Source: an uncultured Chloroflexia bacterium
GTDB lineage: Bacteria > Chloroflexota > Limnocylindria > Limnocylindrales > CSP1-4
Length of the DNA stretch: 64,000 nt
Assembly (NCBI GenBank): GCA_963766735.1
Contig: CAVYBU010000004.1
Location: 64,001 to 128,000, forward strand
Reading direction: 5' to 3'
Part shown: in pieces, positions 7,265 to 32,714 of the stretch
Position numbering within the stretch: position 1 is the stretch's first letter
How the letters are laid out: the number at the start of each line of letters is the position of its first letter
Translations under genes and position numbers: made by a program
Notes under the pieces: model-generated
What the model was told of the DNA's origin: nothing
Seen by the model: the letters and a program-made list of their open reading frames with translations, nothing else
Database searches by the model: none

Positions 7265-9175
7265 ATGACCACGATTCGACTCACGACCGGACAGGCGGTC
7301 GTCAACTACCTGGCCAACCAGTACGTCGAGCGGGACGGCATCGAGCACCGCTTCTTCGCCGGCCTCTGGGGCATCTTCGGGCACGGCAACATCGGCGGCG
7401 TCGCCCAGGCGGTCCAGCAGGCGGAGGCCGGCTTCCCGTACTACCTGTGCCGGAACGAGCAGGCGATGGTCCACGCCGCCGTGGGCTACGCCAAGCTCAA
7501 GAACCGCCTCGGTGCGTTCGCGTGCCTGACCTCGATCGGGCCCGGCGCGACCAACATGGTCACCGGCGCCGCTTCGGCGACGATCAACCACGTGCCGGTG
7601 CTGCTGCTCGCGGGCGACGCCTTCGCGGAGCGCGTCCAGTCCCCCGTCCTCCAGCAGCTGGAGCACCCGGGATCACAGGACACCAGCGCGAACGACACGT
7701 TCCGCCCTGTCGTCCGCTACTGGGACCGGATCAACCGACCCGAGCAGGTGATCACGGCGCTGCCCGAGGTCATGCGGATCCTGACCTCGCCCGCCGACAC
7801 GGGCGCGGTCTTCCTCGGCCTGCCGCAGGACATCCAGACCTACGCGTTCGACTTCCCGGAGGAGATGTTCGCGAAGCGGGTCTGGTCGATCGCGCGCAAC
7901 CGGCCCGACCGCGGCCTCGTGGAGGCTGCCGCACGGTGGATCCGCGAGAGCCGGCGCCCCGTGATCTTCGCTGGTGGCGGCGTCCGCTACAGCGAGGCGA
8001 CCGACGCGCTGCGGAGCTTCGCCGAGCAGACGGGGATCCCCGTCGCGGAGACCCACGCAGGCAAGGGCTCGCTCCCCTACGACCACCCCCTGAGCCTCGG
8101 CGGGGCGGGCGTCTCGGGGACGCTGGCCGCCAACATCATCGCGCCCGAGGCGGACCTGGTGATCGGCATCGGGACACGGTTCACGGACTTCCCCACCGCG
8201 TCCAAGACGGCGTTCCAGGATCCGGACGTCCGCTTCATCAACATCAACGTCGCCGAGTTCGATGCCTTCAAGCACGCCGCGGTGCCGCTGGTCGGCGACG
8301 CCCGGGCGACGCTGGAGGAGCTGGCGGTGGCCGTCGGGGACTTCTCGACCGCGCCCGAATACCGGGAGCGTGTCGCTGCCCTGAACAAGGAGTGGGACGC
8401 CGAGGTGGAGCGCGTGTACGCCCACAGCGTCGGCGACATCCTCACCCAGGGCGAGGTCATCGGCGCCGTGGAGGCCTCCGCGGATGCGCGCGACGTGGTC
8501 GTGACGTCCGCGGGCAGCCTGCCGGGCGACCTGCTGAAGCTCTGGCGCTCGCGCGACGCCGCCAGCTACCAGGTGGAGTACGGCTACTCGACCATGGGCT
8601 ATGAGATCGCCGGCGGCCTCGGAGCCAAGCAGGCCGCGCCCGACCGCGAGGTCTACGTGATGGTCGGCGACGGCTCGTTCCAGATGATGAGCTCCGAGAT
8701 CACCACCGCGGTCCAGGAGGGTCTCAAGCTCATCGTCGTTCTCGTGGACAACAAGGGCTTCTCCAGCGTCGGGCGCGTGTCCGAGCAGGTGGGCGCCGAG
8801 GGCTTCGGCTGCCACTACCGTCTCCGGGGACCCTCCGGTGCCTACGACGGTCCGGAGATGCAGCTCGACTTCGTCAGGATCTGCCAGGGGATGGGCGCCA
8901 AGGCACTGGAGGTCAAGACCCTCCCCGACCTCCGGGCGGCCCTCGCGGACGCCCGCGCCGGCACCGAGACGGTCTGCATCGTGGTCCAGACGGACTGGGA
9001 CGAGCGGGTCCGCGGCTACGCCAACTCCTGGTGGGAGATGGCCACGCCACAGGTCTCGGAGATGCCCGCGGTGAACGCCGCCCGCGAGGAGTTCGACCGC
9101 AACAAGGGGCGCCAGCGCTACCTGATGATCCCCGGCGCACCCTACTCCCGGGCGTCGGCCGACACGGACTCCTAG
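7265..9175 (+). CDS. iolD: 3D-(3,5/4)-trihydroxycyclohexane-1,2-dione acylhydrolase, copy 1
   Basis: TIRLTTGQA, GIFGHGN, RNEQAMVH, TSIGPGATN, EYGYSTMGYE, TPP motif GDGS. Confidence 0.93.
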   Translation: MTTIRLTTGQAVVNYLANQYVERDGIEHRFFAGLWGIFGHGNIGGVAQAVQQAEAGFPYYLCRNEQAMVHAAVGYAKLKNRLGAFACLTSIGPGATNMVTGAASATINHVPVLLLAGDAFAERVQSPVLQQLEHPGSQDTSANDTFRPVVRYWDRINRPEQVITALPEVMRILTSPADTGAVFLGLPQDIQTYAFDFPEEMFAKRVWSIARNRPDRGLVEAAARWIRESRRPVIFAGGGVRYSEATDALRSFAEQTGIPVAETHAGKGSLPYDHPLSLGGAGVSGTLAANIIAPEADLVIGIGTRFTDFPTASKTAFQDPDVRFININVAEFDAFKHAAVPLVGDARATLEELAVAVGDFSTAPEYRERVAALNKEWDAEVERVYAHSVGDILTQGEVIGAVEASADARDVVVTSAGSLPGDLLKLWRSRDAASYQVEYGYSTMGYEIAGGLGAKQAAPDREVYVMVGDGSFQMMSSEITTAVQEGLKLIVVLVDNKGFSSVGRVSEQVGAEGFGCHYRLRGPSGAYDGPEMQLDFVRICQGMGAKALEVKTLPDLRAALADARAGTETVCIVVQTDWDERVRGYANSWWEMATPQVSEMPAVNAAREEFDRNKGRQRYLMIPGAPYSRASADTDS

Positions 9176-9179
9176 GGTC

Positions 9180-10277: not shown

Positions 10278-10305
10278 GGAACCCTGACCGGGGTTCGGGA
10301 GGGCG

Positions 10306-10364
10306 CAGGTCCAGCCGCCCCAGGTCCCGCCGCCCCAGGTCCAGCCGCCCCAGATCGCCGCCCC
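10306..10364 (+). repeat. 15-bp tandem repeat (CAGGTCCAGCCGCCC) x3 plus a degenerate fourth unit
   Basis: Units at 10306, 10321, 10336 and a partial unit at 10351. Confidence 0.85.
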
Positions 10365-10407
10365 TTGACGCGGCTGGATTGCTGATCTAACGTAGGCAAT
10401 CGATTAC
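10365..10407 (+). promoter_or_regulatory. Promoter of the LacI gene with an operator at the predicted start site
   Basis: TTGACG (10365-10370)-17 bp-TAACGT (10388-10393); GCAATCGATTAC at 10396-10407. Confidence 0.72.
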
Positions 10408-10535
10408 ACAGACACGCCGGAGGCGATCTCGCGCATGCACAACCGATCGCATCGCCCCCGATCGCGCGTCGGTTCCGGAGGCCAGTGCCGGGTCGTCACT
10501 GTCCGCCTCCGGCGTCCATCGGTCGGGTCTCGCTG

Positions 10536-11582
10536 ATGGACAAGACGGCCCGTCCCACCATCAGCGACGTCGCCGAACGCGCGGGCGTGTCCACCGCCAC
10601 GGTCAGCCGCGTCCTCGCGGGCATCGGCCGCTCCCGACCCGACACCGCAGCGGCCGTGGTCGCTGCAGCCGATGAGCTCGGCTACCGCCCCTCGGGCGTC
10701 GCGCGCTCGCTGCGCATGCAGCGGACGCGAACATTCGGGCTGATCGTCTCCGACATCCAGAACCCGTTCTTCCCCGAGCTTGTCCAGGCCGTGGACGACG
10801 CGGCGCGCGCCGTCGACTACTCGATCCTGCTCGGCAGCGCCGCCTACGACGAGAAGCGCGCCGTGCACTACCTGGACCTCATGGTGGACCGCCGCGTCGA
10901 CGGGATGATCGTGGCATCCAGCCTGATCTCGGACACGAGCTGGCGATGGCTGCTCGCCTCCCCCGTTCCGGTCATCGTCGTCAACGTCGAGCCACCGGAC
11001 CACCGTGTTCCCGCCATCGTGAGCGACAACGAGGGCGGCAGTCGGCAGGCCGTGGAGCACCTCGTCGGGCTCGGGCATCGACGGATCGGCTACATCCGTG
11101 GGCCGCAGACGTTCACCGCGGCGGCGCCCCGGCTCGAGGGCTTTCACCAGGCGTGTGCGGATGCCGGGCTGGCACCGGACGACCTGGCGATCCTGCGCGG
11201 CGATGGCCAGGTCGAGGGTGGCGAGCTGGCCGCGGCGCAGATGCTGGTGCAGGCGCCGTGGGTGACGGCGATCGCCTGCTACAACGACCTCACCGCCATC
11301 GGTGCGCTCCAGGCCCTGAGGGCGGCCGGTCGCCGCGTGCCTGGAGACATCAGCGTCATCGGCTTCGACGACATCGCCGCCGCCTCGTGGGTCGTGCCCG
11401 CGCTGACGACGATCGGCCAGGCAAAGGCCGACATGGGCCGGCTCGCAGTCGAATACCTGGTCCGGGCCCTCGAGGGCGGTGCGTCCGAGCCGGTGCCGGA
11501 GGTGCGCCGCCTGGCGCTCGCGCTCCGGGTCCGGGAGTCAACGGGCCCCGCGCCCGTGTCCGCTGGGGCACCTGACCGGTAG
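10536..11582 (+). CDS. LacI family transcriptional regulator (probable inositol regulon repressor)
   Basis: [50 protein letters not shown]. Confidence 0.93.
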
Positions 11583-12766: not shown

Positions 12767-13627
12767 TCAACTGCTGGCTGGCGACTGCGAACTGGCGTCG
12801 GCGAGAGCCTCGAGCTCGAGCGTCAGCTCATGGAGCTCACTGCCGCCGCCCATGTAGCCGTGAAGCCGCTCGGAGTCGATCTCACCACGTTTGAAGGTGC
12901 CCGAGATTCGTCCCCGTGAGAGCACGGTGAACGTGTCCCCGATCGGCAGGGCGTGGAGCACGTTGTGGGTGATGAACACGACGCCCAGGCCACGGTTCCG
13001 CGCGGCGATGATGTGCCGCAGTACGGTCGCCGCCTGCTTGACGCCCAGCGCCGAGGTGGGCTCGTCGAGGATGAGGACCTTCGCGCCGAAGTACTCCGCG
13101 CGGGCGATGGCCAGCGTCTGGCGTTCGCCACCCGACAGAGTGCCGACCGCCTGGCTGGTGTCGCGGACGTCGATCCCGATCCGCGCCATCTCCTCCTTGG
13201 CGACGCGGTCGGCCATGCCGCCGTCCCATCGCCGGAGCGGACCGTACCCGACGGTGGGCTCGTTCCCCAGGAAGAAGTTTCGGCTGATGCTCATGAGCGG
13301 CATCACCGACAGATCCTGGTACACGGTCGCGACGCCGGCGTCGAGCGCCTCCCGGGGCGCCGAGAAGCGGACGTCCTTGCCGTCCACGGCGAGCGTCCCC
13401 TTGTCGGGCGCGAACACGCCCGAGAGGATCTTGATCAGCGTGGACTTGCCGGCACCGTTGTCGCCCAGCAGGCACACGATCTTGCCGGCGTGAACGGCAA
13501 GCGACACGTCCTCCACCGCAACGACGGCGCCGAAGTACTTGGAGACGTTGCGCGCCTCGAGCAGCGCCGGGCCCTCGGGCGCGGTTGCCGACGTCGCCGG
13601 GGCGAGGGTATCGACTCGGGGTTCCAT
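12767..13627 (-). CDS. Sugar (inositol) ABC transporter ATP-binding protein
   Basis: [27 protein letters not shown]; single ATPase domain. Confidence 0.9.
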
Positions 13628-13643
13628 GATGGTCGGCCCTCCC

Positions 13644-14702
13644 TCAGCGCAGGCCGGCGAAACGGCGCCGGATCCAGTTGTTGAGTACCACCGCGATGAG
13701 CAGCAACGACCCGAGGGCGACGTTGTACCAGTCGGCGTTGATGCCCGCGAAGAAGATGCCGATCTGGGCCATGCCCAGGGCGGCCGCACCGATGGCGGTG
13801 CCAACCACCGAGCCGTAGCCGCCGACCAGCAGCGTGCCGCCGATGACGGCGGTTGTGATGGCGCGCAGCTCCATGCCCTGGCCGCGCAGCACGTCCGAGG
13901 AGTAGTAGGTCATCGACTGGATCGCCGCCAGCACCGCCGCCGAGAGGGCGGTGCCCGCAAACAGCATGATCTTCACGCGGGCCACCGGGACGCCGAGGTT
14001 GCGTGCCGCGACCGCAGAGCCGCCGACGCCGGCAATCCAGTTGCCGAACGACGTTCGCGAGTACACATAGGCCCCGAAAGCCGCGATGACGACCCACCAC
14101 AGGATCGAGACCTTGATGTCGCCACCCATGGGCAACGTGATGCTCGCCCGGAACAGCTGGGCGATGGGATCGGCGTCGATGACGGCCCGGTCGATCGGGA
14201 TGTATGTGATGTTGGTGATCTCGGCGGTGGCGACGATCGTGATGCCCTTGATGATGAACAGCGTGGCCAGCGTGACGATGAACGACGGCAGGCCGGTCCG
14301 CACCACGATGAGGCCATTCATGACGCCCAGCAGCGTCGTCAACAGCATCGAGATCCCGATGGCCGCCCACACCGGAGTGCCGAGCTCGGTGATGCAGATG
14401 CCGGTCACGATGCCCGCGAACCCGACCAGCGAACCGACCGAGAGGTCGAACTCGCCGGCGATCATGAGCAGCGCCACCGCCGTGCCGAGGATCCCGATCT
14501 GGGCGGCGACGTCGAGATAGCTCAACGTGCCTTCGGGGGTCAGGAACCCGCTGCTTCCTCCAAGGATCGCGAACACGACCCACACGAACACCACGATGAT
14601 CGCCGCACCCGCCGCGGGGCGGGCGAGGATGCGCTCGTACAGCGGGATGTGGCGAAGTCGCGAGTTCTGTCCCGACGTTGTCCCGGGTGTCTCTGCCATC
14701 AC
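13644..14702 (-). CDS. Sugar (inositol) ABC transporter permease, RbsC type
   Basis: [30 protein letters not shown]. Confidence 0.9.
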
Positions 14703-14782
14703 CTACCTCCGGCGAGAAACCGGACGGGGCCGGCCGTTGGCCGGCCCCGCCCAGGCACGTTACGTGGTGAGGTTCGAGCCCG

Positions 14783-15811
14783 TCAGCGGAGCCCGGCGGC
14801 GGCGAGTGAGATCACGTCGGCCGCGTCGGCCTGGGTGACGAACCCGGGGCCGGTCATGATCAGGCCGGTCCCATCGCCGGTGGGCAGGTTCTTGGTCTGG
14901 ATGTACTGGATCATGAACATCAGGGAGTCATAGCCCTGGATGTACTGCTGCTGGTCGACGGCGAACTCCATGTTCCCGTCCTTGATCGCGTTGAGCACGT
15001 CGGTGGACAGGTCGAAGGTCGCGGTGCGGATCGTGCCGGTCAGGCCGGCCTCCTCGACCGCCAGCAGCATCGGAGACGCTGCAGACGGGCCCAGGGTCAG
15101 GATGCCGTCGATCGTCGGATCGGCCTGGAACGCCGCCTTGATCGTCGCCGTGATCCCGGCCGGGTCAGAGATCTGGCCCGTGAGGACCTTGTCGCTGCCG
15201 TCAACGCCCATGCCATCGAAGAAGCCGTTGCAGCGGTCGGTCAGCGCCTGGTTGGCGACCTCCTGGTTGAAGCAGACCGGGTTCTTGACCCCGGCCTCCT
15301 TGAACTTGGTCCCGGCGCCGAGGCCGGCCTCGTACTCCGTCTGGCCGACGTGGGCGATGAGGCCGAGCTCCTTGAAAACGGTGGAGCCGGAGTTGATCGA
15401 GATGACCGGGATCCCGGCGGCGACGGCCTTCTGGATGGACGGCCCGAGTGCCTCGGCATTCGGGATCGACACGATCAGGCCCGACGGCTTCTTGGCGATG
15501 GCCGCGTCGATGAGCTGCGACATCTTGACGTAGTCGCTCTCGGCATCGGGGGCGCTGTAGTTGTACGTGATCCCGAAGTCCGAGGCGGCGTTCTTGAAGC
15601 CGTTGCGGACCACGCCCCAGAACCCGTCCACGGCCTGGCCGTGGGTCACGACCTCGATGCTGATGTTGTCACGGGTGACCAGGACGCCATCGGCGTCAGC
15701 GCCACCACCGCCACCACCCGCGTCGCTCGCGGCGGGCTCCGACGACCCGCAGGCGGCGACGAGGATCGCGACGCCGGCAAGTGCGACAAGTGCCCTGCTT
15801 CGCAGAAACAT
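14783..15811 (-). CDS. Sugar (inositol) ABC transporter substrate-binding lipoprotein
   Basis: Lipobox LVAAC; VVTHG..DGFWGVV, INSG, DQQQYIQGY, TGPGFVT. Confidence 0.88.
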   Translation of the reverse strand: MFLRSRALVALAGVAILVAACGSSEPAASDAGGGGGGADADGVLVTRDNISIEVVTHGQAVDGFWGVVRNGFKNAASDFGITYNYSAPDAESDYVKMSQLIDAAIAKKPSGLIVSIPNAEALGPSIQKAVAAGIPVISINSGSTVFKELGLIAHVGQTEYEAGLGAGTKFKEAGVKNPVCFNQEVANQALTDRCNGFFDGMGVDGSDKVLTGQISDPAGITATIKAAFQADPTIDGILTLGPSAASPMLLAVEEAGLTGTIRTATFDLSTDVLNAIKDGNMEFAVDQQQYIQGYDSLMFMIQYIQTKNLPTGDGTGLIMTGPGFVTQADAADVISLAAAGLR

Positions 15812-16083
15812 GCTCGTGCTCCTCCATGTTCCGGGGCGACCTGCCCCGTGTTGCTCCCTGGGTGCCAGATGCGGCGCCCCCCGAGCGGGATGGCCGTGCG
15901 CCCGCAACCGCTCGCCTGCCGCATCGTTGGTGCTTACCGATCCTTTGTCAACCGGGAGTTTGCACCATCCAAGAGGCGCGGTGGCGGCGTACCCGTCGCA
16001 TCGCCGACCGCTCCCGGGCGTGTCGGCCCGGTCCGGCGCTACGATGGTGCTCGAGGTCCGCCACATCGACGCCACGATACTGT

Positions 16084-16095
16084 GTAATCGGTTAC
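16084..16095. promoter_or_regulatory. LacI-type operator GTAATCGGTTAC
   Basis: Near-palindrome in the divergent SBP/dehydrogenase intergenic region, immediately after -10-like TACTGT. Confidence 0.7.
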
Positions 16096-16207
16096 CTGTG
16101 AAGCCCCAAACTGTCGCCACGGGAACCGCCTCGAAGCATCAGCTGCTCCGCGTGGCTGTGTGCGGAGCCGGTCGTACCGGACAGACAGCGCGAACGAGGA
16201 GGCCCAG

Positions 16208-17356
16208 ATGAGCAACACGGTCCGGATCGGCATCGTGGGCACCAGCTGGTGGGCCGACGCCATGTACCTGCCGGCGCTCACGAACCACCCGCTGGCGGAC
16301 GTGCGGGGCGTGGTGGGCGGCACCCGCGCGGAGCACACCCGCGAGTTCGCGGCGCAGTGGGGCATTCCCGGCGCATACGACACGCTCGACGCCATGCTCG
16401 CTGCGGAGCCGCTCGACGCGCTGGTGATCCTGAGTCCCAACGTGCATCACTTTCCGTACACGATGGCGGCGCTCGAGCGCGGACTCCACGTCCTGTGCGA
16501 GAAGCCGCTGGCCTTGACCTCTGCAGAGGCCCGCCTGATGACCGAGGCCGCCGAGCGGGCCGGCGTCGTCACCATGGTGCCGTTCACATACCGCTTCATG
16601 CCGGTCAACCGCTATCTCAAGGAGCTCGTGGACGAGGGCTACATCGGGCGCCCGTACCACCTGAACATGCGCTACTACACCGGCTACGGGCGATCTGGCG
16701 AGTACAGCTGGCGCTTCGACGTCGACCAGGCAGGCTCCGGCGTCACCGGTGACCTGGCGTCACACTGGGCCTACCTGGCGCGCTGGTTCTATGGCGAGAT
16801 CTCGGCCGTCACTGCCGTGTTCGGCCATGCCGTGCCGCGGGCGCCGAGGCCCGACGGCGTCCCGTTCACCGCGGGCGAGGACTCCGCCATGATCCTGCTG
16901 GAATTCGAGAACGGTGCGACCGGATCGCTTCACGTGTCCTCCGTGGCGTACGCGCCCGGTCCGTTCGGGCAGCGCCATGAGATGGACCTGCACGGCAGCG
17001 ATGGCAGCCTGCACGCGATCACGGACTGGGACCTCGTCCAGCGGGTGGACGGCTGCCGGGCGGACGAGCCCGCGACCCATGAGCTACCGATCCCGGACCG
17101 CCTGTTCGGTGGTGCCCGCCGCGACACGGTCGGCAACACCTACAAGGACACGTTCCGCCAGGCCGACCACATGGCGCGCGGGTTCGTCACGGCGATCGCC
17201 CAGCGGACGCCGGCCTCCCCCGACTTCCGCGACGGCCTGGCCGTTCAGCGTGTGCTGGACGCGGCGGGCCGCAGCGCTCGCGAGGGGCGGCGCGTTTCCA
17301 TCGCGGAAATCGTCGCCGACGGGGCCTCGGCGGTGGATCCGGCACACCCGTCGTGA
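16208..17356 (+). CDS. Gfo/Idh/MocA family oxidoreductase
   Basis: RIGIVGT, HVLCEKPLA, GDLASH, PDFRDG; SD GAGGAGG. Confidence 0.88.
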   Translation: MSNTVRIGIVGTSWWADAMYLPALTNHPLADVRGVVGGTRAEHTREFAAQWGIPGAYDTLDAMLAAEPLDALVILSPNVHHFPYTMAALERGLHVLCEKPLALTSAEARLMTEAAERAGVVTMVPFTYRFMPVNRYLKELVDEGYIGRPYHLNMRYYTGYGRSGEYSWRFDVDQAGSGVTGDLASHWAYLARWFYGEISAVTAVFGHAVPRAPRPDGVPFTAGEDSAMILLEFENGATGSLHVSSVAYAPGPFGQRHEMDLHGSDGSLHAITDWDLVQRVDGCRADEPATHELPIPDRLFGGARRDTVGNTYKDTFRQADHMARGFVTAIAQRTPASPDFRDGLAVQRVLDAAGRSAREGRRVSIAEIVADGASAVDPAHPS

Positions 17357-19656: not shown

Positions 19657-19702
19657 CTGCGAAGCCCAAGCCGTCGCCGCAGGACCCTCTTGGAGGCCTC
19701 AC

Positions 19703-22836: not shown

Positions 22837-24719
22837 AGCAGCTCCCTCCGCTGGTTGCCCACGGCCGTCTCATACCGCTCGCGGGCGCCGCGGACTCCGT
22901 CCTGCGCGCTCACGGCAGCCGGCGGCACGTCCCACCATCCTTCGTAGCCGGGCGCCCGCTTCTCGGGCGAGACGGCGACATGGATCACGGTGATCCGGTC
23001 GGCTGCGCGGGCCGCGGCCAGGGCGGCCCGGATGTCATCCTCGGTGCGCGCGTAGAGGGCGAGGGCGCCCATCGACTCCGCGTGCTTCTTGAAATCCACC
23101 GGCACGTAGCCGCCCGTGAGGCGATTGCGCGCCGGATCGCGGAACCGCAGCTCGTTGCCGAACTGCCCGATCCCCACGCTCGCGGCGAGATCCTTGATGC
23201 ACTGGAAGCCGTGGTTGTCGAAGACGACGACCGTGATCCTGATCCCCTCGGCGACCGCGGTCACGATCTCGGAGTTGAGCATCAGGTAGGTGCCGTCGCC
23301 GATGGCGACCACCACCTCACGTTCCGGCTCGGCAAGCTTGACGCCAAGGCCGGCCGGGATCTCGTAGCCCATGCACGAGTAGCCGTACTCGAGGTGGTAG
23401 GCCTTGGAGTCCTCGGGCCGCCACAGCTTGAGCAGGTCGCCCGGAAGGCTGCCGGCGGCACAGACGACCGTGGCATGGCCGCCAACCGCGTCGTTGACGA
23501 TGCCGATGACCTCGGGCTGGGCCAGCTCCTCGGTCTCGCCGTTTGGCGTGCGGTGATAGTCGACGCGGGCGTCCCACTCGGCCTTGAGGTCCGTGACCCG
23601 TTGCCGGTACTCCGGCGAGGTGCCCGGGTGGCCGGCTTCCGCCAGCGCGGCCGTGATGGCGGTCAGCGCCTCGCGGGCATCTGCGACCACCGGCACGGAG
23701 CGGAGCTTGGCCGCGTCGAACCCGTTGACGTTGATGCCCACGAAGGACACGTCGGGATCCTGGAACTGGGCCTTGGAGGCCGTGACAAAGTCGCCCAGGC
23801 GCGTGCCGACGGCGATCACGAGGTCCGCGTCGCGCGCGAGCCGGTTGGCGGCGAGACCCCCGGCGGCGCCGACCGGGCCCGCGTTGAGGGGATGGTTCCA
23901 GGGCAGGACGCCCTTGCCCGCCTGGGACTCCGTGACCGGGATCCCGAACCTGGTGGCGAGGTCGTCGAGAGCCGCCTCCGCCCCGGAGTAGATGGCGCCA
24001 CCGCCGGCGATGATGATCGGCCGCGCGGCGGCGCGGATGAGGTCCACGACCTCAGCGACGACCGCCTCGTCCGGACGGGGCCGCCGGACGCGCCAGACAC
24101 GGCGCTCGAAGAAGCGCTCCGGCCAGTCGTAGACCTCGGACTGCACGTCCTCGGGCAGGGAGATCGTCACGGCGCCGGTCTCGGCCGGGTCGGTCAGGAC
24201 GCGGAAGGCCTCCGGGAGGCTGGACAGCAGCTGTTCGGGGCGGGAGATGCGGTCGAAGTAGCGGGAGACGGGGCGGAAGGCATCGGAGGCAGAGACGTCG
24301 CGCTCCACCGGGTGCTCGACCTGCTGGAGCACCGGGTCCGGGAGGCGGTTGGCGAAGTAGTCGCTGGGGAACAGCAGCACCGGCAACCGGTTGATGGTGG
24401 CACCCGCGGCGCCGGTGATCATGTTCGTGGCGCCCGGGCCAATGGACGAGGTGCAGGCGAACGTCTGGAGGCGGTTCTTGTGCTTCGCGTACGCGGCAGC
24501 CAGGTGCACCTGCGCCTGCTCGTTCTGCGGGCGGTAGTAGGGCATCTCGCACTCGTCGCCGAGCTCCTCGAGAGCCTGCCCCAGGCCGGCGACGTTGCCG
24601 TGCCCGAAGATGCCCCAGACACCGGCGATGAAACGGGACTGGACCCCGTCCCGCTCCACGTACTGCTCCGCCATGAAGCGGACGATCGCCTGCCCGACGG
24701 TCAGCTGAACCGTGCCCAC
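22833..24719 (-). CDS. iolD: 3D-(3,5/4)-trihydroxycyclohexane-1,2-dione acylhydrolase, copy 2
   Basis: QLTVGQA, GIFGHGN, SSIGPGATN, HLEYGYSCMGYE, GDGT; GTG start with SD GAGGAG. Confidence 0.93.
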   Translation of the reverse strand: MGTVQLTVGQAIVRFMAEQYVERDGVQSRFIAGVWGIFGHGNVAGLGQALEELGDECEMPYYRPQNEQAQVHLAAAYAKHKNRLQTFACTSSIGPGATNMITGAAGATINRLPVLLFPSDYFANRLPDPVLQQVEHPVERDVSASDAFRPVSRYFDRISRPEQLLSSLPEAFRVLTDPAETGAVTISLPEDVQSEVYDWPERFFERRVWRVRRPRPDEAVVAEVVDLIRAAARPIIIAGGGAIYSGAEAALDDLATRFGIPVTESQAGKGVLPWNHPLNAGPVGAAGGLAANRLARDADLVIAVGTRLGDFVTASKAQFQDPDVSFVGINVNGFDAAKLRSVPVVADAREALTAITAALAEAGHPGTSPEYRQRVTDLKAEWDARVDYHRTPNGETEELAQPEVIGIVNDAVGGHATVVCAAGSLPGDLLKLWRPEDSKAYHLEYGYSCMGYEIPAGLGVKLAEPEREVVVAIGDGTYLMLNSEIVTAVAEGIRITVVVFDNHGFQCIKDLAASVGIGQFGNELRFRDPARNRLTGGYVPVDFKKHAESMGALALYARTEDDIRAALAAARAADRITVIHVAVSPEKRAPGYEGWWDVPPAAVSAQDGVRGARERYETAVGNQRRELL

Positions 24720-24787
24720 TGATCGCTCCTCTCGACTCACTCGAACCCACCTGGCTCACTCGACCGGGATAGATCGTCTCATACCGT

Positions 24788-24799
24788 GCAATCGATTAC
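24788..24799. promoter_or_regulatory. LacI-type operator GCAATCGATTAC
   Basis: Between divergent iolD2 and the trehalose cassette. Confidence 0.72.
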
Positions 24800-24992
24800 A
24801 AGGTCCAGGGACCCCGGCAGGACCGCCGATGCCCATAGGCTAGTATTGGAGTCCTGCCGCTGTGCGCCGTTCCCGCTGTCCCCGGCCCGGCCCCAAGGAG
24901 ATCACGATGCCCAGGCTGCGATCGGCACAACGTTCCACGAGGGACTCGCTGCCGACGGGACCCGGGCAGGCGGCCGAGGCACGGGCCTTGGG

Positions 24993-25643
24993 ATGACCCG
25001 TCCCTTCGTGTTCTGGGGCTGCCACGAGATCCGCGAGAACCTCGGCGTGCGCGCGGACACCGTGCTTGAGCTCGCGGAGCACCTCCGGACGATCGACTCG
25101 GATTCGATCTTCTACCACTCCGTCCGGTGCCTGATGCGCCACCAGGCCGGCCGCAATGCCTATCCCGACGACTTCGCCCGCTGGGTCGCGCAGGAGGCGG
25201 GCGACCCGGAGCTGGCCGAGCGACTGGCCCTGTTCTCGCCCTTCGACCTGCCATCGATCGAGGACTTCCGGGCGCACCTCATCGCCATCATCGAGGATCA
25301 CCTCGACTCCTCACCCGTTGCCCGGGTCACCGCCCGGACGCCGTTCCGCTTCCTGCGGGGGCACATGGCCACGCTGCCCATCGGGCTCGACGCCGATGAC
25401 CTCTCAACCCTCCGGGCCGGTCTGGCAGCGGTTGACGAGAGCTCCATCTACTTCCACACGGTGGAGTCGCCCGGTGAGCGGGGCGATTGGCGCAACGACA
25501 TCGCCGCCTGGGTGGACGCGGACCTCGGGCTGCCCACCCTGACCATCCGCCTTGCGGAGGTGGACCCGTTCGTGGCCGGCCTGGGACACACCAGGAGCCT
25601 GCTCCTCGCGGCGATCGACGGCTACTCAGGCGAGACGGCATGA
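24993..25643 (+). CDS. DUF5752-like protein associated with trehalose synthase
   Basis: Internal duplication (SIFYH..DDFARWV / SIYFH..NDIAAWV); stop overlaps the treT start. Confidence 0.7.
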   Translation: MTRPFVFWGCHEIRENLGVRADTVLELAEHLRTIDSDSIFYHSVRCLMRHQAGRNAYPDDFARWVAQEAGDPELAERLALFSPFDLPSIEDFRAHLIAIIEDHLDSSPVARVTARTPFRFLRGHMATLPIGLDADDLSTLRAGLAAVDESSIYFHTVESPGERGDWRNDIAAWVDADLGLPTLTIRLAEVDPFVAGLGHTRSLLLAAIDGYSGETA

Positions 25644-26902
25644 CGATGCCCCGCAGGGACCCCACCCGCACCGGTTCGGGGATGGGCGCCGCGTCTCATC
25701 CGCTCGCACAGTACGAGGGCCTGGCCGCGCCTGGGACCCTTCGACTGGCAAGGCACCTGGCCGGGGACCTCGCCGGACACTCGTTCCTGCACATCAACGC
25801 GACCAAGCGGGGCGGAGGCGTCGCGGAGATCCTCGAGCGCATCCTGCCACTCCTGGACGAACTCGGGATCCGGACCCGCTGGGAGGTGATCAGCGGGGAG
25901 CCCGAGTTCTACGTCGCCACGAAGAGGATGCACAACGCCCTCCAGGGCTCGAAGGAGCCGCTGACCACCGCGGACCAGGAGGTCTACAACGAGACGAACC
26001 GGCAGGCGATCGGGACGCTTGACCTGGACGCCGAGCTGGCGATGATCCACGATCCCCAGCCTGCGGGGCTGATCGACGGCCGGCCGAACGGTGCCCGATG
26101 GATCTGGCGCTGCCACATCGACCTCTCCGCCCCCCAACGCGCGGCGTGGGGGTTCCTCGAGCCGAACGTCGCCCGCTATGACGGCACGGTCTTCCACCTC
26201 GCTGCCTTCGCCCGAAGGCTCCCCGTCCCCACGTACCTGATCCACCCGAGCATCGACCCGCTGTCGGCCAAGAACCGGGAGATGGCGCGCCCGGAGGTCG
26301 AGCGCCGCCTGGAGGCGATGGGCGTCCCGTTCGATCGGCCACTGATCGTCCAGGTCTCGCGGTTCGACCCGTTCAAGGACCCGGTCGGCGTGATCGACGC
26401 GTACCGGCTGGTCCGCAGGTTCCAGGACGCCGTCCTCGTCCTGGCGGGCGGGTCCGCGGACGACGACCCGGAGGGCGCGGAGGTGCTGGCCCGGGTCAGG
26501 GAGGCGGCGAACGGCGAGCCCGACATCCACGTGCTCGAGCTTCCGCCCGATGCCCACGAGGACATCAACGCCCTCCAGACGGCCGCCACGGTCGTGGTCC
26601 AGAAGTCTCTCCGGGAAGGCTTCGGCCTGACCGTGGCCGAGGCGATGTGGAAGGGCAAGGCGGTCGTCGGCGGCGCCGTCGGCGGGGTCGCCGTCCAGAT
26701 CGAGGACGGGGTGACGGGTCTCCTCGTCCACTCGGTGGAGGGGGCGGCGTATGCGCTGCGTCGCCTGCTGGGAGACGCCGAGCTGCGGGATGGCATGGGT
26801 GCGCTGGCCCGGGAGCACGCTCGGCGGAACATCCTCATCACCCGGCACCTGGTGGACTACCTGCTCCTGCTCCGCCTCCAGCTGGAGGCATCCCGTGGCT
26901 GA
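25640..26902 (+). CDS. treT: Trehalose synthase (GT4 glycosyltransferase)
   Basis: INATKRGGGVAEIL, HNALQG, IHDPQP, WRCHID, QVSRFDPFKD, QKSLREGFGLTVAEAMWK. Confidence 0.88.
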   Translation: MTMPRRDPTRTGSGMGAASHPLAQYEGLAAPGTLRLARHLAGDLAGHSFLHINATKRGGGVAEILERILPLLDELGIRTRWEVISGEPEFYVATKRMHNALQGSKEPLTTADQEVYNETNRQAIGTLDLDAELAMIHDPQPAGLIDGRPNGARWIWRCHIDLSAPQRAAWGFLEPNVARYDGTVFHLAAFARRLPVPTYLIHPSIDPLSAKNREMARPEVERRLEAMGVPFDRPLIVQVSRFDPFKDPVGVIDAYRLVRRFQDAVLVLAGGSADDDPEGAEVLARVREAANGEPDIHVLELPPDAHEDINALQTAATVVVQKSLREGFGLTVAEAMWKGKAVVGGAVGGVAVQIEDGVTGLLVHSVEGAAYALRRLLGDAELRDGMGALAREHARRNILITRHLVDYLLLLRLQLEASRG

Positions 26903-29120
26903 CCGCCTGGTCGTGGTCGCGAACCGACTGCCCCTCACCGTGCGGCGGACCGGTGGGCGGTGGCATGGTGAGCGAAGCAGCGGCGGGCTCGTCGCGGCGC
27001 TCTCGCCGGTCCTGGAGCGGGTCGAGGGCCTGTGGATCGGCTGGCCGGGCGATGCCCTCTCGGGCGATCTCACGGGACGGGCAGAGCTCCTGGAGTCGCT
27101 GGAGCGCGAGCAGTCGCTCGCGTCCGTGGACCTGCCCCCGAAGATCAGCCGGGCGTTCTACGAGGGATACAGCAACAACACCCTGTGGCCGCTCCTGCAC
27201 GGGTTCCCGTCCCGGGTGACGTTCGATCGGGAGGCCTACCATGCCTATCGTGACGCGAACGGCCGGTTTGCAGCCGCCGTGCTGGACCGGCTTCGGCCGG
27301 ACGACCTCGTCTGGGTGCACGACTACCAGCTCATGCTCGTGCCGAACCTCCTCCGCGAGCAGCGGCCCGACGTGCGCGTCGCGTTCTTCCTCCACATCCC
27401 GTTCCCGCCGCCGGAGGTCTTCCGGATCCTTCCCCAGCGCGAGGAGCTCCTGACCGGGCTGCTCGGAGCGGACGTCATCGGCTTCCAGACGCACGAGCAC
27501 CTCGGGGCCTTCCGACGGGCCCTCCTGCAGGTCCTGGGCATCGAGAGCCGCATGGATCGGGTCGAGATCGACGGACGAACCGTCGCGCTGGAGGCTCGGC
27601 CGATCGGGATCGTGCCCGACGAATGGGAGCGGCTCGTGACCGCCGACGCCGATGTTGCCCGCCGGATCCGCGAGATCCATGGCCGCCACGCCGGGCGGAA
27701 GCTCGTCTTCGCCGTCGACCGCCTTGACTACACGAAAGGGATCCCGGAGCGTCTCCGCACGTTCCACCATTTCCTGGTCTCGCGGCCGGAATGGCGGGGC
27801 AAGGTGACGCTGATCCAGGTGGCCGTCCCGTCGCGAGAGCGGATCGCGAGGTACGCGGCGCTTCGGCGCGAAGTCAACGAGGTGGTCGGCGAGATCAACG
27901 GCGAGCTCGGTACCGCGGAGTGGAATCCCATCATCTACCTCCGCCGCTCGGTGTCGCGTGCGGAGCTTGCAGCCTTGTATGCGGCCGCAGACGTCGGCTG
28001 GGTCGCGTCGCTCCGGGACGGCATGAACCTCGTGGCCAAGGAGTTCGTGGCCTGCCAGCAGGACCGGGCGGGGGTCCTGCTGCTGAGCGAGTTCGCGGGC
28101 GCGGCCGGTGAGATGGGCGAAGCGATCCGGGTCAATCCCTACGATGAGACCGGCTCCGCCGCTGCGCTCGAGCGAGCTCTGACGATGACCGACGAGGAGC
28201 GCCGGGAGCGGCAGGAGGCCCTGCTGTATCGCGTCCGCCAGAACAGCGCGGTCGCCTGGGCGGAGCGATCCGTGGCGGACCTCGAGCGGACCGTCGCCGA
28301 GCGGAGCCTGAGCCCCGGGGCAATCCCAGCTCCTCCGATCGTGGAGATCCGTCGCGCCTACCGGGCCGCGGCTCACCGCGCCTGCTATCTCGACTACGAC
28401 GGCACCCTCACCCCCCTCGTTGCCCGCCCGGCCGATGCGGTACCCGGGCCGGCGGTCGTCGACATCGTCACGGCGTTGGCGCGCAACCGAAAGACGACGC
28501 TCGTCATCGTCTCGGGCCGGCCCGCCGCAGATCTCGAACGCTGGTTCGGCCACGTCGAGGGGGCATGGCTTGCAGCGGAGCACGGGGCCCTGCTCCGGGA
28601 GCCCGGAGGACACGATTGGCGCCCGCTTCGACCGGGAGCCGACAACGAGTGGAAGTCCCGCGTTCGACCGGTGCTGGACCACTTTGCCGAGCGCGCCCCG
28701 GGGAGCAGGGTCGAGGAGAAGGAGTACGCGCTGGCCTGGCACTTCCGGCTGGTCGAACGGGAGTTCGGCGACTGGCTGGCGAACGAGCTCGCGGTGGCGC
28801 TCGACCAGCAGCTGGCTGGCACCGAGCTCGCCGTGCTCCGCGGCAACAAGGTCGTCGAGGTCCGTTTCGCGTGGGCGAACAAGGGCGAGGTGGCCGCTCA
28901 CGTCCGTGCGGCAGGTCCAACGCCGGCGTTCGAGATCGCGATCGGCGATGACCGGACGGACGAAGACCTGTTCGAGCGCCTCCCCGAGGAGGCCTACACG
29001 ATCCGCGTCGGGCCCGGCTCCACCAGGGCGCGCTTCCGCATCGCCGGTCCGGAGGCTGTGATCGGGCTGCTGGCCAGCATCGTCGCCCGGCGCACCGGGG
29101 GCGCCGCTCCAGGTCCCTGA
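26895..29120 (+). CDS. otsAB: Bifunctional trehalose-6-phosphate synthase/phosphatase
   Basis: [39 protein letters not shown]; C-terminal HAD domain [15 protein letters not shown]. Confidence 0.92.
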
Positions 29121-29178: not shown

Positions 29179-30705
29179 CTAGGAGTTGCCGGGGAAGACC
29201 AGGCTCAGCGGCCCCTGCTTGCCGGGCTCGGGCCAGCGCTCGGTGACCATCTTCTGCTGGGTGAAGAAGCGGACACCGTCCTCACCGCGCATGGCCATGT
29301 CGCCGATCGCCGATTCCTTGGCGCCCGAGAAGCTCATGTAGCCGGCCGGGACCGGGATCGGCACGTTGACGCCGATCATCGGGACCTCGACCTCGAGCTT
29401 GAACCGCCGGGCCGCGCCGCCGTCGGTCGTGAACACCGCGGTGCCGTTGGCGTACTTGTGGTCGTTGATGAGCTTGAGGCCTTCCTCGAACGTGTCGGCG
29501 TACACGATTCCGAAGACCGGGCCGAAGATCTCCTCCTGGTAGACCTGCATGCTCGGGGTGACGTGGTCGAACAGCGTCACGCCGAGGAAGAAGCCATCGG
29601 GATTGGGACCCTCGAACGTCCGGCCGTCGACCAGGAGCTCGGCTCCCTCCGCCTCGCCGACGCCGATCCACTTGATGATCGACTCGCGGTGGTCGTTGCT
29701 GTAGATCGGGCCCATGTCGACGCCCGCGTCCATGCCGTTGCCGATCTTGAGCCGTGCGATCCGCTCCATGATCTTGGGCTTGAGGCGCTCGCCGGTGTCG
29801 CCGACCGCGATCAGCAACGTCTGGGCCATGCAACGCTCGCCGGCGGAGCCGAAGCCCGCCGCGACCGCCGCGTCCGCGGCAAGATCCATGTCCGCGTCCG
29901 GCAGGACGAGCATCGCGTTCTTGGCGCTGGTGTAGGACCCGACGCGCTTGCCGCGCTTGGTCCCCTCCTCGTAGACATACCGGCCGACGGCCGTGGAGCC
30001 GACGAACTGGATCGCGCGGATGTCCTCGTGCTCGACGATCGCCTTGACCGCCTCCCGGCCCCCATAGACGACGTTCAAGGTGCCGTCGGGGCCACCGGCC
30101 TGCGTCCACAGCTCGGCCTGGAGCTGCGTGGCGCCGGGCGTGTGGGAGGACGGCTTGAAGACGACCGTGTTCCCGCACATCAGGGCGATCGGGTAGATCC
30201 AGGTCGGGACCATCACCGGGAAGTTGAACGGCGTGATCGCCGCCACCACGCCCAGCGGCTGGCGCAACGTGAACGCGTCCACGTTGGTGGAGACATTGGG
30301 GCTCATCATGCCGGCCAGGTGGCCCGGCAGGCCGCACGCGAAGTCCACGGTCTCCAGGCCGCGGAGGACCTCGGCCAGGGCATCCGGGAAGGTCTTGCCG
30401 TGGTCGCGCGTGATGAGCGCGGCCAGCTCTTCGCGATGCTCGTACATGAGGCCGCGGAACGCGAAGAAGATGTTGGAGCGGGCGATGAGCGGCATGTCGC
30501 GCCAGGCCGGGAAGGCAGCCTTCGCAGCGGCCACCGCCTGGTCGACCTCTGCCACGCCACCGCGCGGCACGCGGGCGAAGACCTGACCGGTCGCCGGGTT
30601 GGTGATGGGGCCGGTCTGGTCGGGCAGGACCTCGACGGCCGTGCCGTTGATCCAGTGCGAGAGGATCGGCAGGACCGCCGTCTGGTCAGGAGTTTCGATC
30701 GCCAC
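29179..30705 (-). CDS. iolA: CoA-acylating (methyl)malonate-semialdehyde dehydrogenase
   Basis: ITPFNFP, FVGST, AKN, GSAGERCMA, EEIFGP, GVNVPIPVP. Confidence 0.92.
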   Translation of the reverse strand: MAIETPDQTAVLPILSHWINGTAVEVLPDQTGPITNPATGQVFARVPRGGVAEVDQAVAAAKAAFPAWRDMPLIARSNIFFAFRGLMYEHREELAALITRDHGKTFPDALAEVLRGLETVDFACGLPGHLAGMMSPNVSTNVDAFTLRQPLGVVAAITPFNFPVMVPTWIYPIALMCGNTVVFKPSSHTPGATQLQAELWTQAGGPDGTLNVVYGGREAVKAIVEHEDIRAIQFVGSTAVGRYVYEEGTKRGKRVGSYTSAKNAMLVLPDADMDLAADAAVAAGFGSAGERCMAQTLLIAVGDTGERLKPKIMERIARLKIGNGMDAGVDMGPIYSNDHRESIIKWIGVGEAEGAELLVDGRTFEGPNPDGFFLGVTLFDHVTPSMQVYQEEIFGPVFGIVYADTFEEGLKLINDHKYANGTAVFTTDGGAARRFKLEVEVPMIGVNVPIPVPAGYMSFSGAKESAIGDMAMRGEDGVRFFTQQKMVTERWPEPGKQGPLSLVFPGNS

Positions 30706-30752: not shown

Positions 30753-31847
30753 TCAGGCCGGCTTGACGTCCGGGTTCGGCAGGACGATGTCGCGTACGAC
30801 GGCCTGGAGATCATGGTACGACGAGACGAAGCCGCGCAGCGTGCGCGCGGTGGCTCCGAAGCCCTCGAACTCCGCGGGCACCATGCCATCGGGCTCGTAG
30901 GCGCGGACGAAATCCGGGACCCGGCGCTGCAGATCGTCGATGAGCTGGGGATCGACGGGGACGTCGATCCGGCTGGCGGGCTCGATGCCCGAGGCGTTGA
31001 ACCGGACCTGCCAGGGGTACGGCATCGTGAGGACGACGTCGCCGCCCACGAGCTCGGTCCAATGGAGCCGGTGGCGGTACGCCGCCGCCAGCAGCCGGGT
31101 CCGGTACCCGCGTTCCTGGAAGATGCCGTAGGCGCGCTTGAACGCGGCGATGCCCGCCCAGTTGGCGGCAGACGGGTCGAGGGCGATGCTGTCCTTCTCG
31201 ACGAGCACCTTGATCCAGTCGTCCAGGCGCCCGATCATCAGCGAGCAGACCGGGCTGAACCGGCTGGTGTCGCCGCCAGCCTGCTCGTACCGGCGCAGGC
31301 CCCGCTCCACCGCCTCGGCCGCAGCGATGCACTGGGCAACGGTGAAGACAACCGTGACGTTGGCAACGACGCCCCGCGCCGTGGCGTCCTCCACGGCCTG
31401 GAGGCCGGCTGCAGTACACGGAAACTTGACCTGGATGTTCGGAGCCAGGGTGCTGAAGTGGACCGCCTGCTCGACCATGCGGTCGGGGGTGCGGTAGTTG
31501 GCAGGGTTCGTCTGCAGCGACAGCCTGCCCTTGCGGCCGTCCTCCTGCTCGAACACCGGCGCCAGGACCCCGGCGCCACGAGCGCCCATCTCCTCGATCA
31601 GCGCCCAGGTGAGCTCGACCTCGGACCAGGTGGGGTTGGCGGCCGCCATCTCGCGGACGCGCGGCACCCAGTGGTCCTTCTCCTTCTTCATCACCTCGAC
31701 CACGATCACGGGGTTCGAGGTGGCGCCGGTCCCGCCGCGCTCGACGGCGTAGGCGAGCTCTGCGATCGCGCAGGAGTCGTTCCAGAAGTCGGTGGGCGTC
31801 TGCTCCACCATGCGGGATAGCGGGCTGTTGACCGTGATCAGGGTCAT
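30753..31847 (-). CDS. Transaldolase-family protein (atypical active site), copy 2
   Basis: FWNDS, GATSNP, VKFP, ANVTVVFT, GRLDDW; ATGA-coupled to iolB. Confidence 0.85.
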   Translation of the reverse strand: MTLITVNSPLSRMVEQTPTDFWNDSCAIAELAYAVERGGTGATSNPVIVVEVMKKEKDHWVPRVREMAAANPTWSEVELTWALIEEMGARGAGVLAPVFEQEDGRKGRLSLQTNPANYRTPDRMVEQAVHFSTLAPNIQVKFPCTAAGLQAVEDATARGVVANVTVVFTVAQCIAAAEAVERGLRRYEQAGGDTSRFSPVCSLMIGRLDDWIKVLVEKDSIALDPSAANWAGIAAFKRAYGIFQERGYRTRLLAAAYRHRLHWTELVGGDVVLTMPYPWQVRFNASGIEPASRIDVPVDPQLIDDLQRRVPDFVRAYEPDGMVPAEFEGFGATARTLRGFVSSYHDLQAVVRDIVLPNPDVKPA

Positions 31848-32714
31848 CGGGTGGCGTCCTCCGTGGCCGCAACGGGTGCGGCCGGATCCCAGTTCATCAA
31901 CCAGGCGTGGTCGGGGTCGAGCGTGAAGTACCAGGCTCGGTTGGGGCCGGCCATCACGTTGAGGTAGTAGCAGTCGTACCCATGGGGCGCACCCACCGGG
32001 TGGTAGCCCTCGGGCACGACGATCAGGTCGCAGTCGCCCGGGGTCATGGCCTCGTCGAGGGAGCGGTCAGCGGTGTAGACGCGGGCGAACGCGAAACCCT
32101 GGGGCTTGGCGAAGCGGTAGAAGTACAGCTCTTCCAGGCGGGCCTCGACCGGCGGGTTCTCCGTGTCGTGCTTGTGGGGCGGGTAGCTGGACCAGTTGCC
32201 GCCGGGCGTGAACGCTTCGAAAGCGATCAGGCGGCCGGCCTCGGCGGACGGTGGCAGCAGGTGGTGGATCCGGCGCTCGGTCTGCCCGGACCCGCGATTC
32301 TCGACCAGGACGTCCTCCGGCGGCGACGAGGGCGGTTCGATGGACTGGGCCGCCGGGTGCCGCCCCGATCACGACGAGGGCATCGGTCTCCGCGACGACG
32401 TCCACGGGCAAGCCCGGCTCCACCAGGATCACGGGGCACGGCGGACCGTCGAACACGGTGGTCCGCGAGCCGACGACGCCGAAGTCGTGCTCCCCCGCCG
32501 TGACGGACGCGCGTCCCTCGAGAACGAGGATCAGCCGCTCCTGGTCGTCCGCCGGACGGCCCACCGCCTGGCCCGGCTGCAGGCGGTAGACGTGGCACGA
32601 CGTGTAGTCCCACCCGGCGGAGGCGGGATCGACCCCGACGATGAGCCCATCGGGCCCGGGGGTGGCCGCGCGGCGGAGGAGGCGCCGCGCGGCTCCCGGT
32701 CGGTCAATGCTCAT
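31844..32714 (-). CDS. iolB: 5-deoxy-glucuronate isomerase, with an apparent 1-bp frameshift near 32321
   Basis: N-terminal frame (AGWDY, SRTTVFDG) switches to a frame giving RGSGQTERRIHH, TPGGNWSSYPPHKHD, LEELYFY, VPEGYHP, YYLNVMAGP. Confidence 0.85.

Follow-up and report, generated by a model that had tools for sequence, protein, structure and literature searches.

The question raised by this locus is how an inositol catabolic gene cluster could run to its end product when the kinase and the aldolase of the known pathway are missing. The locus lies in a 64,000-nucleotide stretch of DNA (the window; 70% G+C) from an uncultured soil Chloroflexota (Limnocylindria), represented by a 3.6-Mb metagenome-assembled genome (MAG) of 35 contigs (93.85% complete, 4.22% contamination estimate). 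The nearest protein relatives of the window are MAGs labeled Candidatus Limnocylindrales or Chloroflexota. The canonical myo-inositol pathway of Bacillus subtilis consists of IolG, IolE, IolD, IolB, IolC, IolJ, and IolA. The inositol catabolic region of the window, which spans about 6.3 to 33 kb, holds two genes for transaldolase-like (TAL-like) proteins, TAL1 and TAL2, among its iol genes. The reading that we favor on sequence grounds, with slightly more belief than doubt, is that TAL1 and TAL2 are 5-dehydro-2-deoxy-D-gluconate (DKG) transaldolases that would act on the unphosphorylated IolB product.

Genes were called from third-position G+C, with Pfam and NCBIfam profile scans on top. On the plus strand, iolD1 (7259-9175; TIGR04377, 852.6 bits against a cut-off of 715), the gene for trihydroxycyclohexane-1,2-dione acylhydrolase, is followed by TAL1 (P0001; 9180-10277), which begins 4 nt past the iolD1 stop. 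An IclR-family regulator gene (6302-7222, plus strand; PF01614, PF09339) lies directly upstream of this pair. On the minus strand, iolB (31844-32714; PF04962, KduI/IolB, in two frames), for 5-deoxyglucuronate isomerase, is followed by TAL2 (P0002; 30753-31847) and by iolA (29179-30705), for a CoA-acylating (methyl)malonate-semialdehyde dehydrogenase (MMSDH; TIGR01722, 611.7 bits against a cut-off of 448.5). The genome has one copy each of iolA and iolB, and the second-best genomic match to iolA is only 30% identical. An earlier note, made from the letters of the window, had placed the TAL-like genes in this way; their coordinates, the 4-nt gap after iolD1, and the ATGA overlap of TAL2 with the iolB stop all stand, whereas the coupling of TAL2 to iolA does not, as the two genes are 47 nt apart.

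That note had also assigned iolG, iolE, iolD, iolB, and iolA to the cluster, and the profile scans bear this out, with iolE present only as two iolE-like inosose dehydratase genes that score under the cut-off of 290 bits for TIGR04379 (11633-12553, plus strand, PF01261, 182.8 bits; 21952-22836, minus strand, 217.1 bits). The gene for inositol 2-dehydrogenase, iolG, lies at 19703-20701 on the plus strand (TIGR04380, 378.6 bits against a cut-off of 355), and a second acylhydrolase gene, iolD2, with TPP domains, at 22833-24740 on the minus strand (TIGR04377, 884.7 bits).

Neither of the two missing enzymes appeared elsewhere. Across the whole genome, no protein scored over the 300-bit cut-off for IolC (TIGR04382); the best match reached 77.8 bits, and the three PfkB genes of the genome resemble ribokinase or fructokinase. 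No IolJ-type aldolase was found genome-wide, the single weak class II match (PF01116, 47.6 bits) being a 484-amino-acid protein without an NCBIfam family, and a whole-genome profile search found no DUF2090 aldolase. The absence of iolC and iolJ, which the earlier note had seen in the cluster, therefore extends to the genome as searched. The genome does carry one canonical transaldolase on another contig (C30; NF002881, 406.7 bits against a cut-off of 367). As a normal transaldolase is already present, TAL1 and TAL2 are extra.

TAL1 and TAL2 are 57% identical and belong to the TAL_FSA family of class I Schiff-base TIM barrels (PF00923, 132.3 bits for TAL1 and 124.7 bits for TAL2 against a cut-off of 27). 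Both fail the canonical transaldolase models, with 109 (TAL1) and 113 (TAL2) bits against 367 for NF002881, and 78-79 bits against 233.75 and 44-54 bits against 396.2 for two further NCBIfam models (TIGR00876 and TIGR00874). Judged by these scores, TAL1 and TAL2 are not ordinary transaldolases. The family is large, with 328 clusters at 50% identity (E <= 1e-30), and public annotation of close homologs reads "transaldolase". Matches in a protein atlas were likewise "transaldolase" clusters from Chloroflexota and Actinomycetota. In a listing of cluster members, the one taxon named was an Oligoflexales MAG.

The closest solved structure by sequence is the Corynebacterium glutamicum transaldolase 3r5e (E 3e-21). 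An AlphaFold (AF2) model of TAL2, built from a 35-sequence alignment, had a pLDDT of 96.5, and Foldseek aligned it to 3r5e with a TM of 0.80 and to Escherichia coli TalB (1onr) with a TM of 0.68. The structural comparison that the earlier note had called for thus confirms a transaldolase fold for TAL2. The TAL1 and TAL2 translations contain the motifs GRLSIQV/GRLSLQT, TLMVGR/SLMIGR, and GAFR/AAYR. In the alignment of P0002 with 3r5e, GRLSLQT stands opposite GRVSIEV and SLMIGRLD opposite SFFVSRVD.

We then surveyed these positions in 161 family members drawn from the loci collected here. Five positions are the same in every member: the Schiff-base Lys, a Thr, an Asn, and two Arg. K141 of P0002, which represents the Lys, pairs with its counterpart in 3r5e and in the genome's canonical transaldolase and is present in 161 of 161 members. 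The position of the catalytic Glu, TalB Glu96, is Gln in 160 of 161 members and Glu in both 3r5e and the genome's canonical enzyme. At the Phe/Tyr position, 160 of 161 members have Met, and the canonical enzyme has Phe. These alignments uphold the earlier reading of Gln for Glu and Met for Phe or Tyr. The change of the phosphate-binding Ser to Ala, read in the ASFR motif, is a reading from motif position only: the GAFR and AAYR motifs are present, and the family has Ala-Tyr/Phe-Arg at the Ser-x-Arg position with an invariant Arg, but this region aligns poorly with the actinobacterial-type enzyme. Compared with TalB, FSA, and 3r5e, the TAL-like proteins keep the fold, the Schiff-base Lys, an Asp, a Thr, and two Arg; they differ in having Gln for the TalB Glu, which is FSA-like, and Met for the TalB Phe or FSA Tyr. 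As aligned, the Gln-Thr-Met residue set of the family fits neither TalB nor FSA.

The distribution of the family was compared with that of IolC in one sample of 301 Chloroflexota genomes, which we searched for four proteins, cross-tabulating the lists by hand. TAL-like proteins were accepted at E <= 1e-60 and IolC by its cut-off (300 bits); because related genomes are non-independent, genus counts are given in place of a statistical test. A TAL-like protein was detected in 22 genomes (16 genera), IolC in 16 (10 genera), a KduI/IolB-family gene in 69, and IolD in 57 (one of which, G227, was not used further). KduI/IolB-family genes and IolD occurred together in 29 genomes, among which IolC was found in 16 (10 genera), a TAL-like protein in 8 (6 genera), neither in 5, and both in none. 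No genome among the 301 contained IolC together with a TAL-like protein, and a search of five further genomes with TAL loci (G301-G305) gave no IolC.

A separate group in the same sample comprises 13 genomes of genera g62 and g26 (e.g., G116 and G010), which carry IolD over its cut-off, in two copies in g26; KduI/IolB-family genes, IolC, and TAL-like proteins are all missing from them at the thresholds used. The IolD product may have another fate in these genomes.

Gene neighborhoods were examined at the 80 genome loci whose TAL genes are most similar to TAL2 (69-96% identity) and at 80 metagenome loci from a scan seeded with distant family members (36-99% identity to the seed, G+C 0.32-0.72). 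Among the close loci, 39 had iolB directly upstream, 47 had iolA, and 25 had both; none of the 80 had an IolC-level match, and one (L045) had a weak PfkB match of 64-74 bits. A TAL1-like gene adjoins an IolB-family gene in nine genomes of the Chloroflexota sample (G079, G261, G285, G142, G196, G296, G024, G065, and G200), and the order iolD1-TAL1-iolE1 recurs in L113, L116, L125, and L129. In the metagenome set, IolB, IolD, or IolE stood beside the TAL gene in 18 of 80 loci, an aldehyde dehydrogenase alone in 7, and IolC in none. Four low-GC loci have the TAL gene beside iolB (L115, L118, L122, and L134), and L134 has the order IolB-TAL-IolD-IolA-IolE. Two fusion proteins were present among the representatives, TAL with KduI/IolB (P0147) and AP_endonuc_2 with TAL (P0129). 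In a tree of the 161 members, iol-linked rows are scattered over many clades, and supported branches force at least 13 label changes.

Promoters of the cluster have an operator-like palindrome in common. Five copies of this palindrome, CAATCGATTA, lie in the window, every one in a cluster promoter region: in front of the LacI gene (10397-10406), between a sugar-isomerase-like gene (minus strand) and iolG (plus strand; 19456-19465), about 50 nt upstream of iolD2 (24789-24798), and twice upstream of iolB-TAL2-iolA. The last two represent putative operator flavors F1 (TCGATTATCGA; 32894-32903) and F2 (GCAATCGATTAC; 32966-32975), of which F2 is common to the lacI, iolG, and iolD2 promoters. The sugar-isomerase-like open reading frame (ORF; 18596-19840) extends over the 19456 palindrome, but its Pfam match starts at residue 199, which places the real gene start downstream of the palindrome. 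With one mismatch allowed, CAATCGATTA had 11 matches on both strands of the window where 2.65 were expected, and none of 100 shuffles reached 11. The core AATCGATT has only 12 copies in the 3.6-Mb genome, five of them at iol cluster promoters, including the two before iolB-TAL2-iolA. In 31 of 38 related loci, the palindrome is found no more than 400 nt before the start of iolB. No such palindrome was found for the iolD1-TAL1 pair, which is preceded by the IclR gene. Through the iolB-TAL-iolA order, the fusions, and the common operator, the TAL-like gene is linked with IolB and IolA.

What such an enzyme would do between IolB and IolA can be proposed from the chemistry of the known intermediates. 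DKG carries the CH2OH-CO-CHOH end needed by transaldolase donors. Its phosphate ester is cleaved by a homolog of FBP aldolase, from which a fructose-like stereochemistry follows, and the known substrates of MMSDH/IolA are malonate semialdehyde and methylmalonate semialdehyde. No intermediate of the known pathway other than DKG offers a donor end of the transaldolase type, and cleavage of DKG would yield the IolA substrate, which makes DKG the most economical substrate. In the proposed reaction, the conserved Lys would react with the CH2OH-CO end of DKG to give a Schiff base, and the C3-C4 bond at the ketose end would be broken. Malonate semialdehyde would be released and then oxidized by IolA, and the bound dihydroxyacetone unit would be handed to an aldehyde acceptor, for example glyceraldehyde 3-phosphate (GAP), giving fructose 6-phosphate (F6P). 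One TAL-like enzyme would in this way replace IolC together with IolJ or DUF2090 and save one ATP. The retained Arg pair could bind a carboxylate or the acceptor phosphate; in the accessible text of PMC3962226, the acceptor phosphate of TalB is bound by two Arg (R181 among them) and one Ser. What the sequences show is the gene content, the synteny, the operator-like sites, the distribution complementary to that of IolC, and the conserved residues; the substrate, the products, and the acceptor are inferred.

Several observations weigh against DKG as the substrate. Of the 22 TAL-positive Chloroflexota genomes, 13 lack IolD at the thresholds used, and 7 have no KduI/IolB-family gene anywhere, namely six with close orthologs (G088, G221, G245, G253, G058, and G034) and the distant G012. 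Of the 29 genomes with IolB and IolD, 5 have neither IolC nor a TAL-like protein; three of these (G007, G158, and G219) show IolC-like matches of 205-295 bits, under the cut-off. A PfkB match of 225-235 bits, likewise under the cut-off of 300, was seen in two TAL-positive genomes, both from one genus. As for TAL2, 41 of the 80 close TAL2 orthologs stand in loci without iolB. The Gln and Met hallmarks are family-wide, including clades with non-inositol neighbors, and so by themselves are no pointer to DKG. The proteins lack the Glu of TalB as well as the Tyr of FSA, which leaves the catalytic acid/base unexplained. Finally, iolB is frameshifted in this assembly, a point to which we return.

A further counter-example came from plasmids. 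In a plasmid collection, matches to the TAL-like proteins occurred only on two Clavibacter michiganensis plasmids, one of which, pCI3 (L095, NZ_CP021037), has an iol cluster with iolC, a DeoC-type aldolase, iolB, iolD, and a TAL-like gene. Its TAL-like protein is 50% identical and keeps the Gln, Met, and Ala-Phe-Arg motifs; the gene lies at the cluster end, divergent from a GntR gene. The presence of iolC and a TAL-like gene together means that replacement of iolC is not obligatory. The iolA homolog of pCI3 (5092-6578) consists of two segments in different frames, is missing from the plasmid's gene table, and may be a pseudogene. The earlier note had proposed to ask whether the subfamily accompanies iolB and iolD and anti-correlates with iolC. 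Mutual exclusion with IolC holds among the 301 Chloroflexota genomes; the subfamily is not, however, confined to iolC-less inositol clusters, as the Clavibacter cluster and the 41 iolB-less loci make plain.

The iolB-less loci have a recognizable content of their own. Their neighbors include GntR/FCD regulators (30 of 41), a PEP-utilizer protein (30), the N part (23) and C part (19) of a split transketolase, a small cupin (20), the large subunit of a Mo-hydroxylase (20), and UPF0261 (17), and a typical order is TAL-iolA-cupin-transketolase N part-transketolase C part, as in G253; the module is also found in L066, L075, L089, and L178. The window's own genome has a cupin/split-transketolase operon at C30:205604-207839 and a second copy at C13:4412-6647, neither beside a TAL gene or iolA, and on both contigs the operon is preceded by AATCGATT in its extended form TCGATTATCGA, that is, F1. 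The F1 flavor precedes the TAL gene in 28 of the 41 iolB-less loci, F2 alone precedes iolB in 26 of 38 loci, and both flavors are found in 5, the window included. From this distribution, TAL2-iolA has the appearance of a lower module common to two putative regulons.

Other clades of the family adjoin genes for TRAP transporters, amidohydrolases, class III aminotransferases, or M24 peptidase-like proteins. In the TRAP clade, about 30 sampled TAL-like genes (L132-L174; 52-57% identical to TAL2) have DctM, DctP, amidohydrolase, and HAD hydrolase genes as neighbors and no iol genes (e.g., L150:1166-5132 and L159:5128-6111), which suggests a different acidic substrate for this clade.

In a rival explanation, TAL1 and TAL2 would act on some other carboxylated or non-phosphorylated ketose, perhaps supplied by the cluster's extra dehydrogenases and isomerases or by the cupin/transketolase module, and unrecognized enzymes would perform the DKG step. 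The occurrence of TAL2-iolA orthologs in genomes without IolB or IolD, the several non-inositol contexts, the operator flavor that iolB-TAL2-iolA shares with the cupin/split-transketolase operon, and the iolC and aldolase retained beside the Clavibacter TAL-like gene would all fit. We nevertheless consider this explanation unlikely, if well worth keeping in view: the TAL gene stands beside iolB in many lineages separate from one another (the nine Chloroflexota genomes and four low-GC loci above), and the partner of TAL2 is a clear MMSDH/IolA, whose substrate DKG alone among the ketoses of the known pathway would give.

If DKG is the substrate, the cleavage might instead be that of a true FSA-like aldolase, yielding malonate semialdehyde and free dihydroxyacetone, to be phosphorylated or reduced elsewhere. 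Gln at the Glu position is as in FSA, and FGGY-family kinases, which are present in the genome, might phosphorylate dihydroxyacetone. In FSA, according to the part of PMC13259622 available, the catalytic water is held by a Gln59-Thr109-Tyr131 network in which Tyr does most of the proton shuttling, and the corresponding part of PMC3962226 states that the F178Y exchange turns TalB from a transaldolase into an aldolase. The TAL-like family has Met in place of this Tyr in 160 of 161 members, and TAL1 and TAL2 score 40-48 bits against a cut-off of 245.95 with the FSA model TIGR00875. A non-protic Met at the position of the proton-shuttle Tyr would favor transfer over release, and no Dak1-type dihydroxyacetone kinase was found in the genome, which, despite the FGGY kinases, makes transfer to GAP likelier than free dihydroxyacetone. 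We regard the aldolase variant as improbable.

It is very doubtful that iolC and iolJ are present but were missed through incomplete assembly or divergence, with the TAL-like proteins as accessories. In its favor are the state of the genome, which is 93.85% complete and in 35 contigs, and the PfkB matches of 225-235 bits in two TAL-positive genomes. However, IolC over the cut-off is absent from all 22 TAL-positive genomes, the majority of them 90-100% complete, and from the five further genomes with TAL loci, and the flanks of the 160 loci contain no IolC-level match. The kinase of G199 that falls under the cut-off shares 29-34% identity with IolC references and has no iol gene near it. That TAL1 and TAL2 are ordinary pentose-phosphate transaldolase paralogs lying among iol genes by chance can be given hardly any credence: the Pfam match, the fold, and the public annotation would agree with it, but a canonical transaldolase is located elsewhere in the genome, every transaldolase equivalog model scores far under its cut-off, the catalytic Glu is replaced, and synteny and operator are kept across dozens of genomes.

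The frameshift in iolB does not appear to be a property of the lineage. Positions 11-121 and 109-262 of the KduI profile match different frames of the window's iolB, and alignment with three relatives that have an intact iolB places one extra base near 32323-32325. The site is bridged without this base by contigs of three DNA runs, which belong to three studies; the depth lacking it was 2.1 of 2.1 (X1), 3.13 of 3.13 (X2), and 6.3 of 18.2 (X4). These contigs differ from the window elsewhere, so they derive from related strains. The iolB frameshift is an assembly error or strain-specific, not a lineage feature. A contig from an RNA library (X15) also crosses the iolB/TAL2 junction (31606-32124), with 12 differences; it may be DNA carry-over and was not used as evidence of transcription.

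A broader reading, to which we give somewhat less than even credence, is that the Gln/Met branch comprises widespread transferases for non-phosphorylated, mostly carboxylated ketoses. DKG + GAP -> F6P + malonate semialdehyde would then be the reaction that replaces IolC and IolJ, and the TAL2-IolA pair of Limnocylindria would serve in both a LacI-type inositol regulon and a GntR-type regulon. In the latter, the cupin isomerase and the atypical split transketolase might build DKG from a C4 hydroxy-aldehyde acid in genomes without iolB.

Against the described inositol pathways, the proposal differs at one segment. The accessible text of Price et al. 2022 (PMC9007349) proposes the IolC-DUF2090 variant, gives IolJ and DUF2090 as the only aldolases for DKG phosphate, and reports that 8 of 26 inositol utilizers lack both. 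As in the B. subtilis and IolC-DUF2090 pathways, iolG, iolE-like genes, iolD, iolB, and iolA are present here, and malonate semialdehyde is again the proposed end product; unlike in those pathways, there is no DKG kinase, IolJ, or DUF2090, and a transaldolase-fold protein is encoded between iolB and iolA. As proposed, the intermediate would be unphosphorylated, and the C3 unit would enter as a sugar phosphate and not, as in B. subtilis, as dihydroxyacetone phosphate.

Precedent for an anionic, non-phosphorylated donor is provided by sulfofructose transaldolase (Frommeyer et al. 2020, PMC7491151, as far as its text was available). By analogy, the TAL-like enzymes would likewise cleave a non-phosphorylated anionic ketose and pass the dihydroxyacetone unit to GAP, although the anionic group would be a carboxylate and not a sulfonate. 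The two enzymes differ in subfamily: BmSF-TAL (PDB 8bc3) is a short TalC/FSA-type protein of 226 amino acids, to which P0002 has a weak match (32.7 bits, E 3.9e-7, residues 109-196). A bifurcated transketolase/transaldolase version of the sulfo-TAL pathway also exists, according to the portion of PMC11659671 available, and is reminiscent of the split transketolase that goes with TAL2-iolA in the present loci.

No description of a transaldolase in inositol catabolism was found in the full-text literature, whose coverage leaves out subscription journals and supplements. In the text available, a 2022 genome survey puts a missing iolC or core gene down to assembly problems (PMC9430895), and in a paper on Dysosmobacter (PMC13311982) the enzymes proposed are class II FBP aldolases and not a transaldolase. 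New here are the complementary IolC count, the conserved operators in two flavors, the association of TAL2-iolA with the cupin/split-transketolase module, the counter-example from Clavibacter, and the iolB frameshift.

The rest of the cluster consists of regulatory, transport, and further enzyme genes. A LacI-family regulator gene (10485-11582, plus strand; PF00356, PF13377, PF00532) follows TAL1, and a tandem array of about three G+C-rich CCGCCCCAGGTCC-like units lies between TAL1 and the lacI promoter/operator (10300-10360). An ABC importer with ATPase, permease, and sugar-type binding protein (12767-16120, minus strand; PF00005, PF02653, PF13407) is followed by a GFO/IDH/MocA oxidoreductase, a distant IolG relative (16160-17356, plus strand; PF01408, PF22725; TIGR04380, 117.9 bits). 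Next is a URO-D fold protein resembling MtaA/CmuA (17436-18581, plus strand), which matches NCBIfam corrinoid methyltransferases at 48-60 bits, far under their cut-offs; it may handle O-methyl inositols such as pinitol and has three more paralogs in the genome. The sugar-isomerase-like barrel mentioned above is on the minus strand, as is an IolG-like dehydrogenase (20806-21837; TIGR04380, 333.9 bits). Between iolD2 and iolA lie trehalose genes on the plus strand (24786-29120) for DUF5752, a TreT-type synthase, and a fused OtsA-OtsB (GT20 plus trehalose phosphatase) of 789 amino acids, and OtsAB occupies the same position in the relatives L011, L019, and L022. The end of contig C32 (41970-44469) is a 99.8% identical copy of C4:96801-99300, which corresponds to window positions 32801-35300 upstream of iolB, and contig C13 repeats part of C30. 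The assembly thus holds redundant or strain-variant pieces, consistent with the contamination estimate.

Myo-inositol catabolism is a textbook pathway that stands behind the annotation of thousands of genomes. If the favored reading of TAL1 and TAL2 as DKG transaldolases is true, transaldolase-type cleavage would fill part of the gap left by inositol utilizers without IolJ and DUF2090, with one ATP saved per inositol and carbon delivered as fructose 6-phosphate. It would also assign a function to a protein family that is very abundant in soil and sediment and at present carries the label "transaldolase", and the members of this family would be biocatalysts that accept non-phosphorylated acidic substrates.

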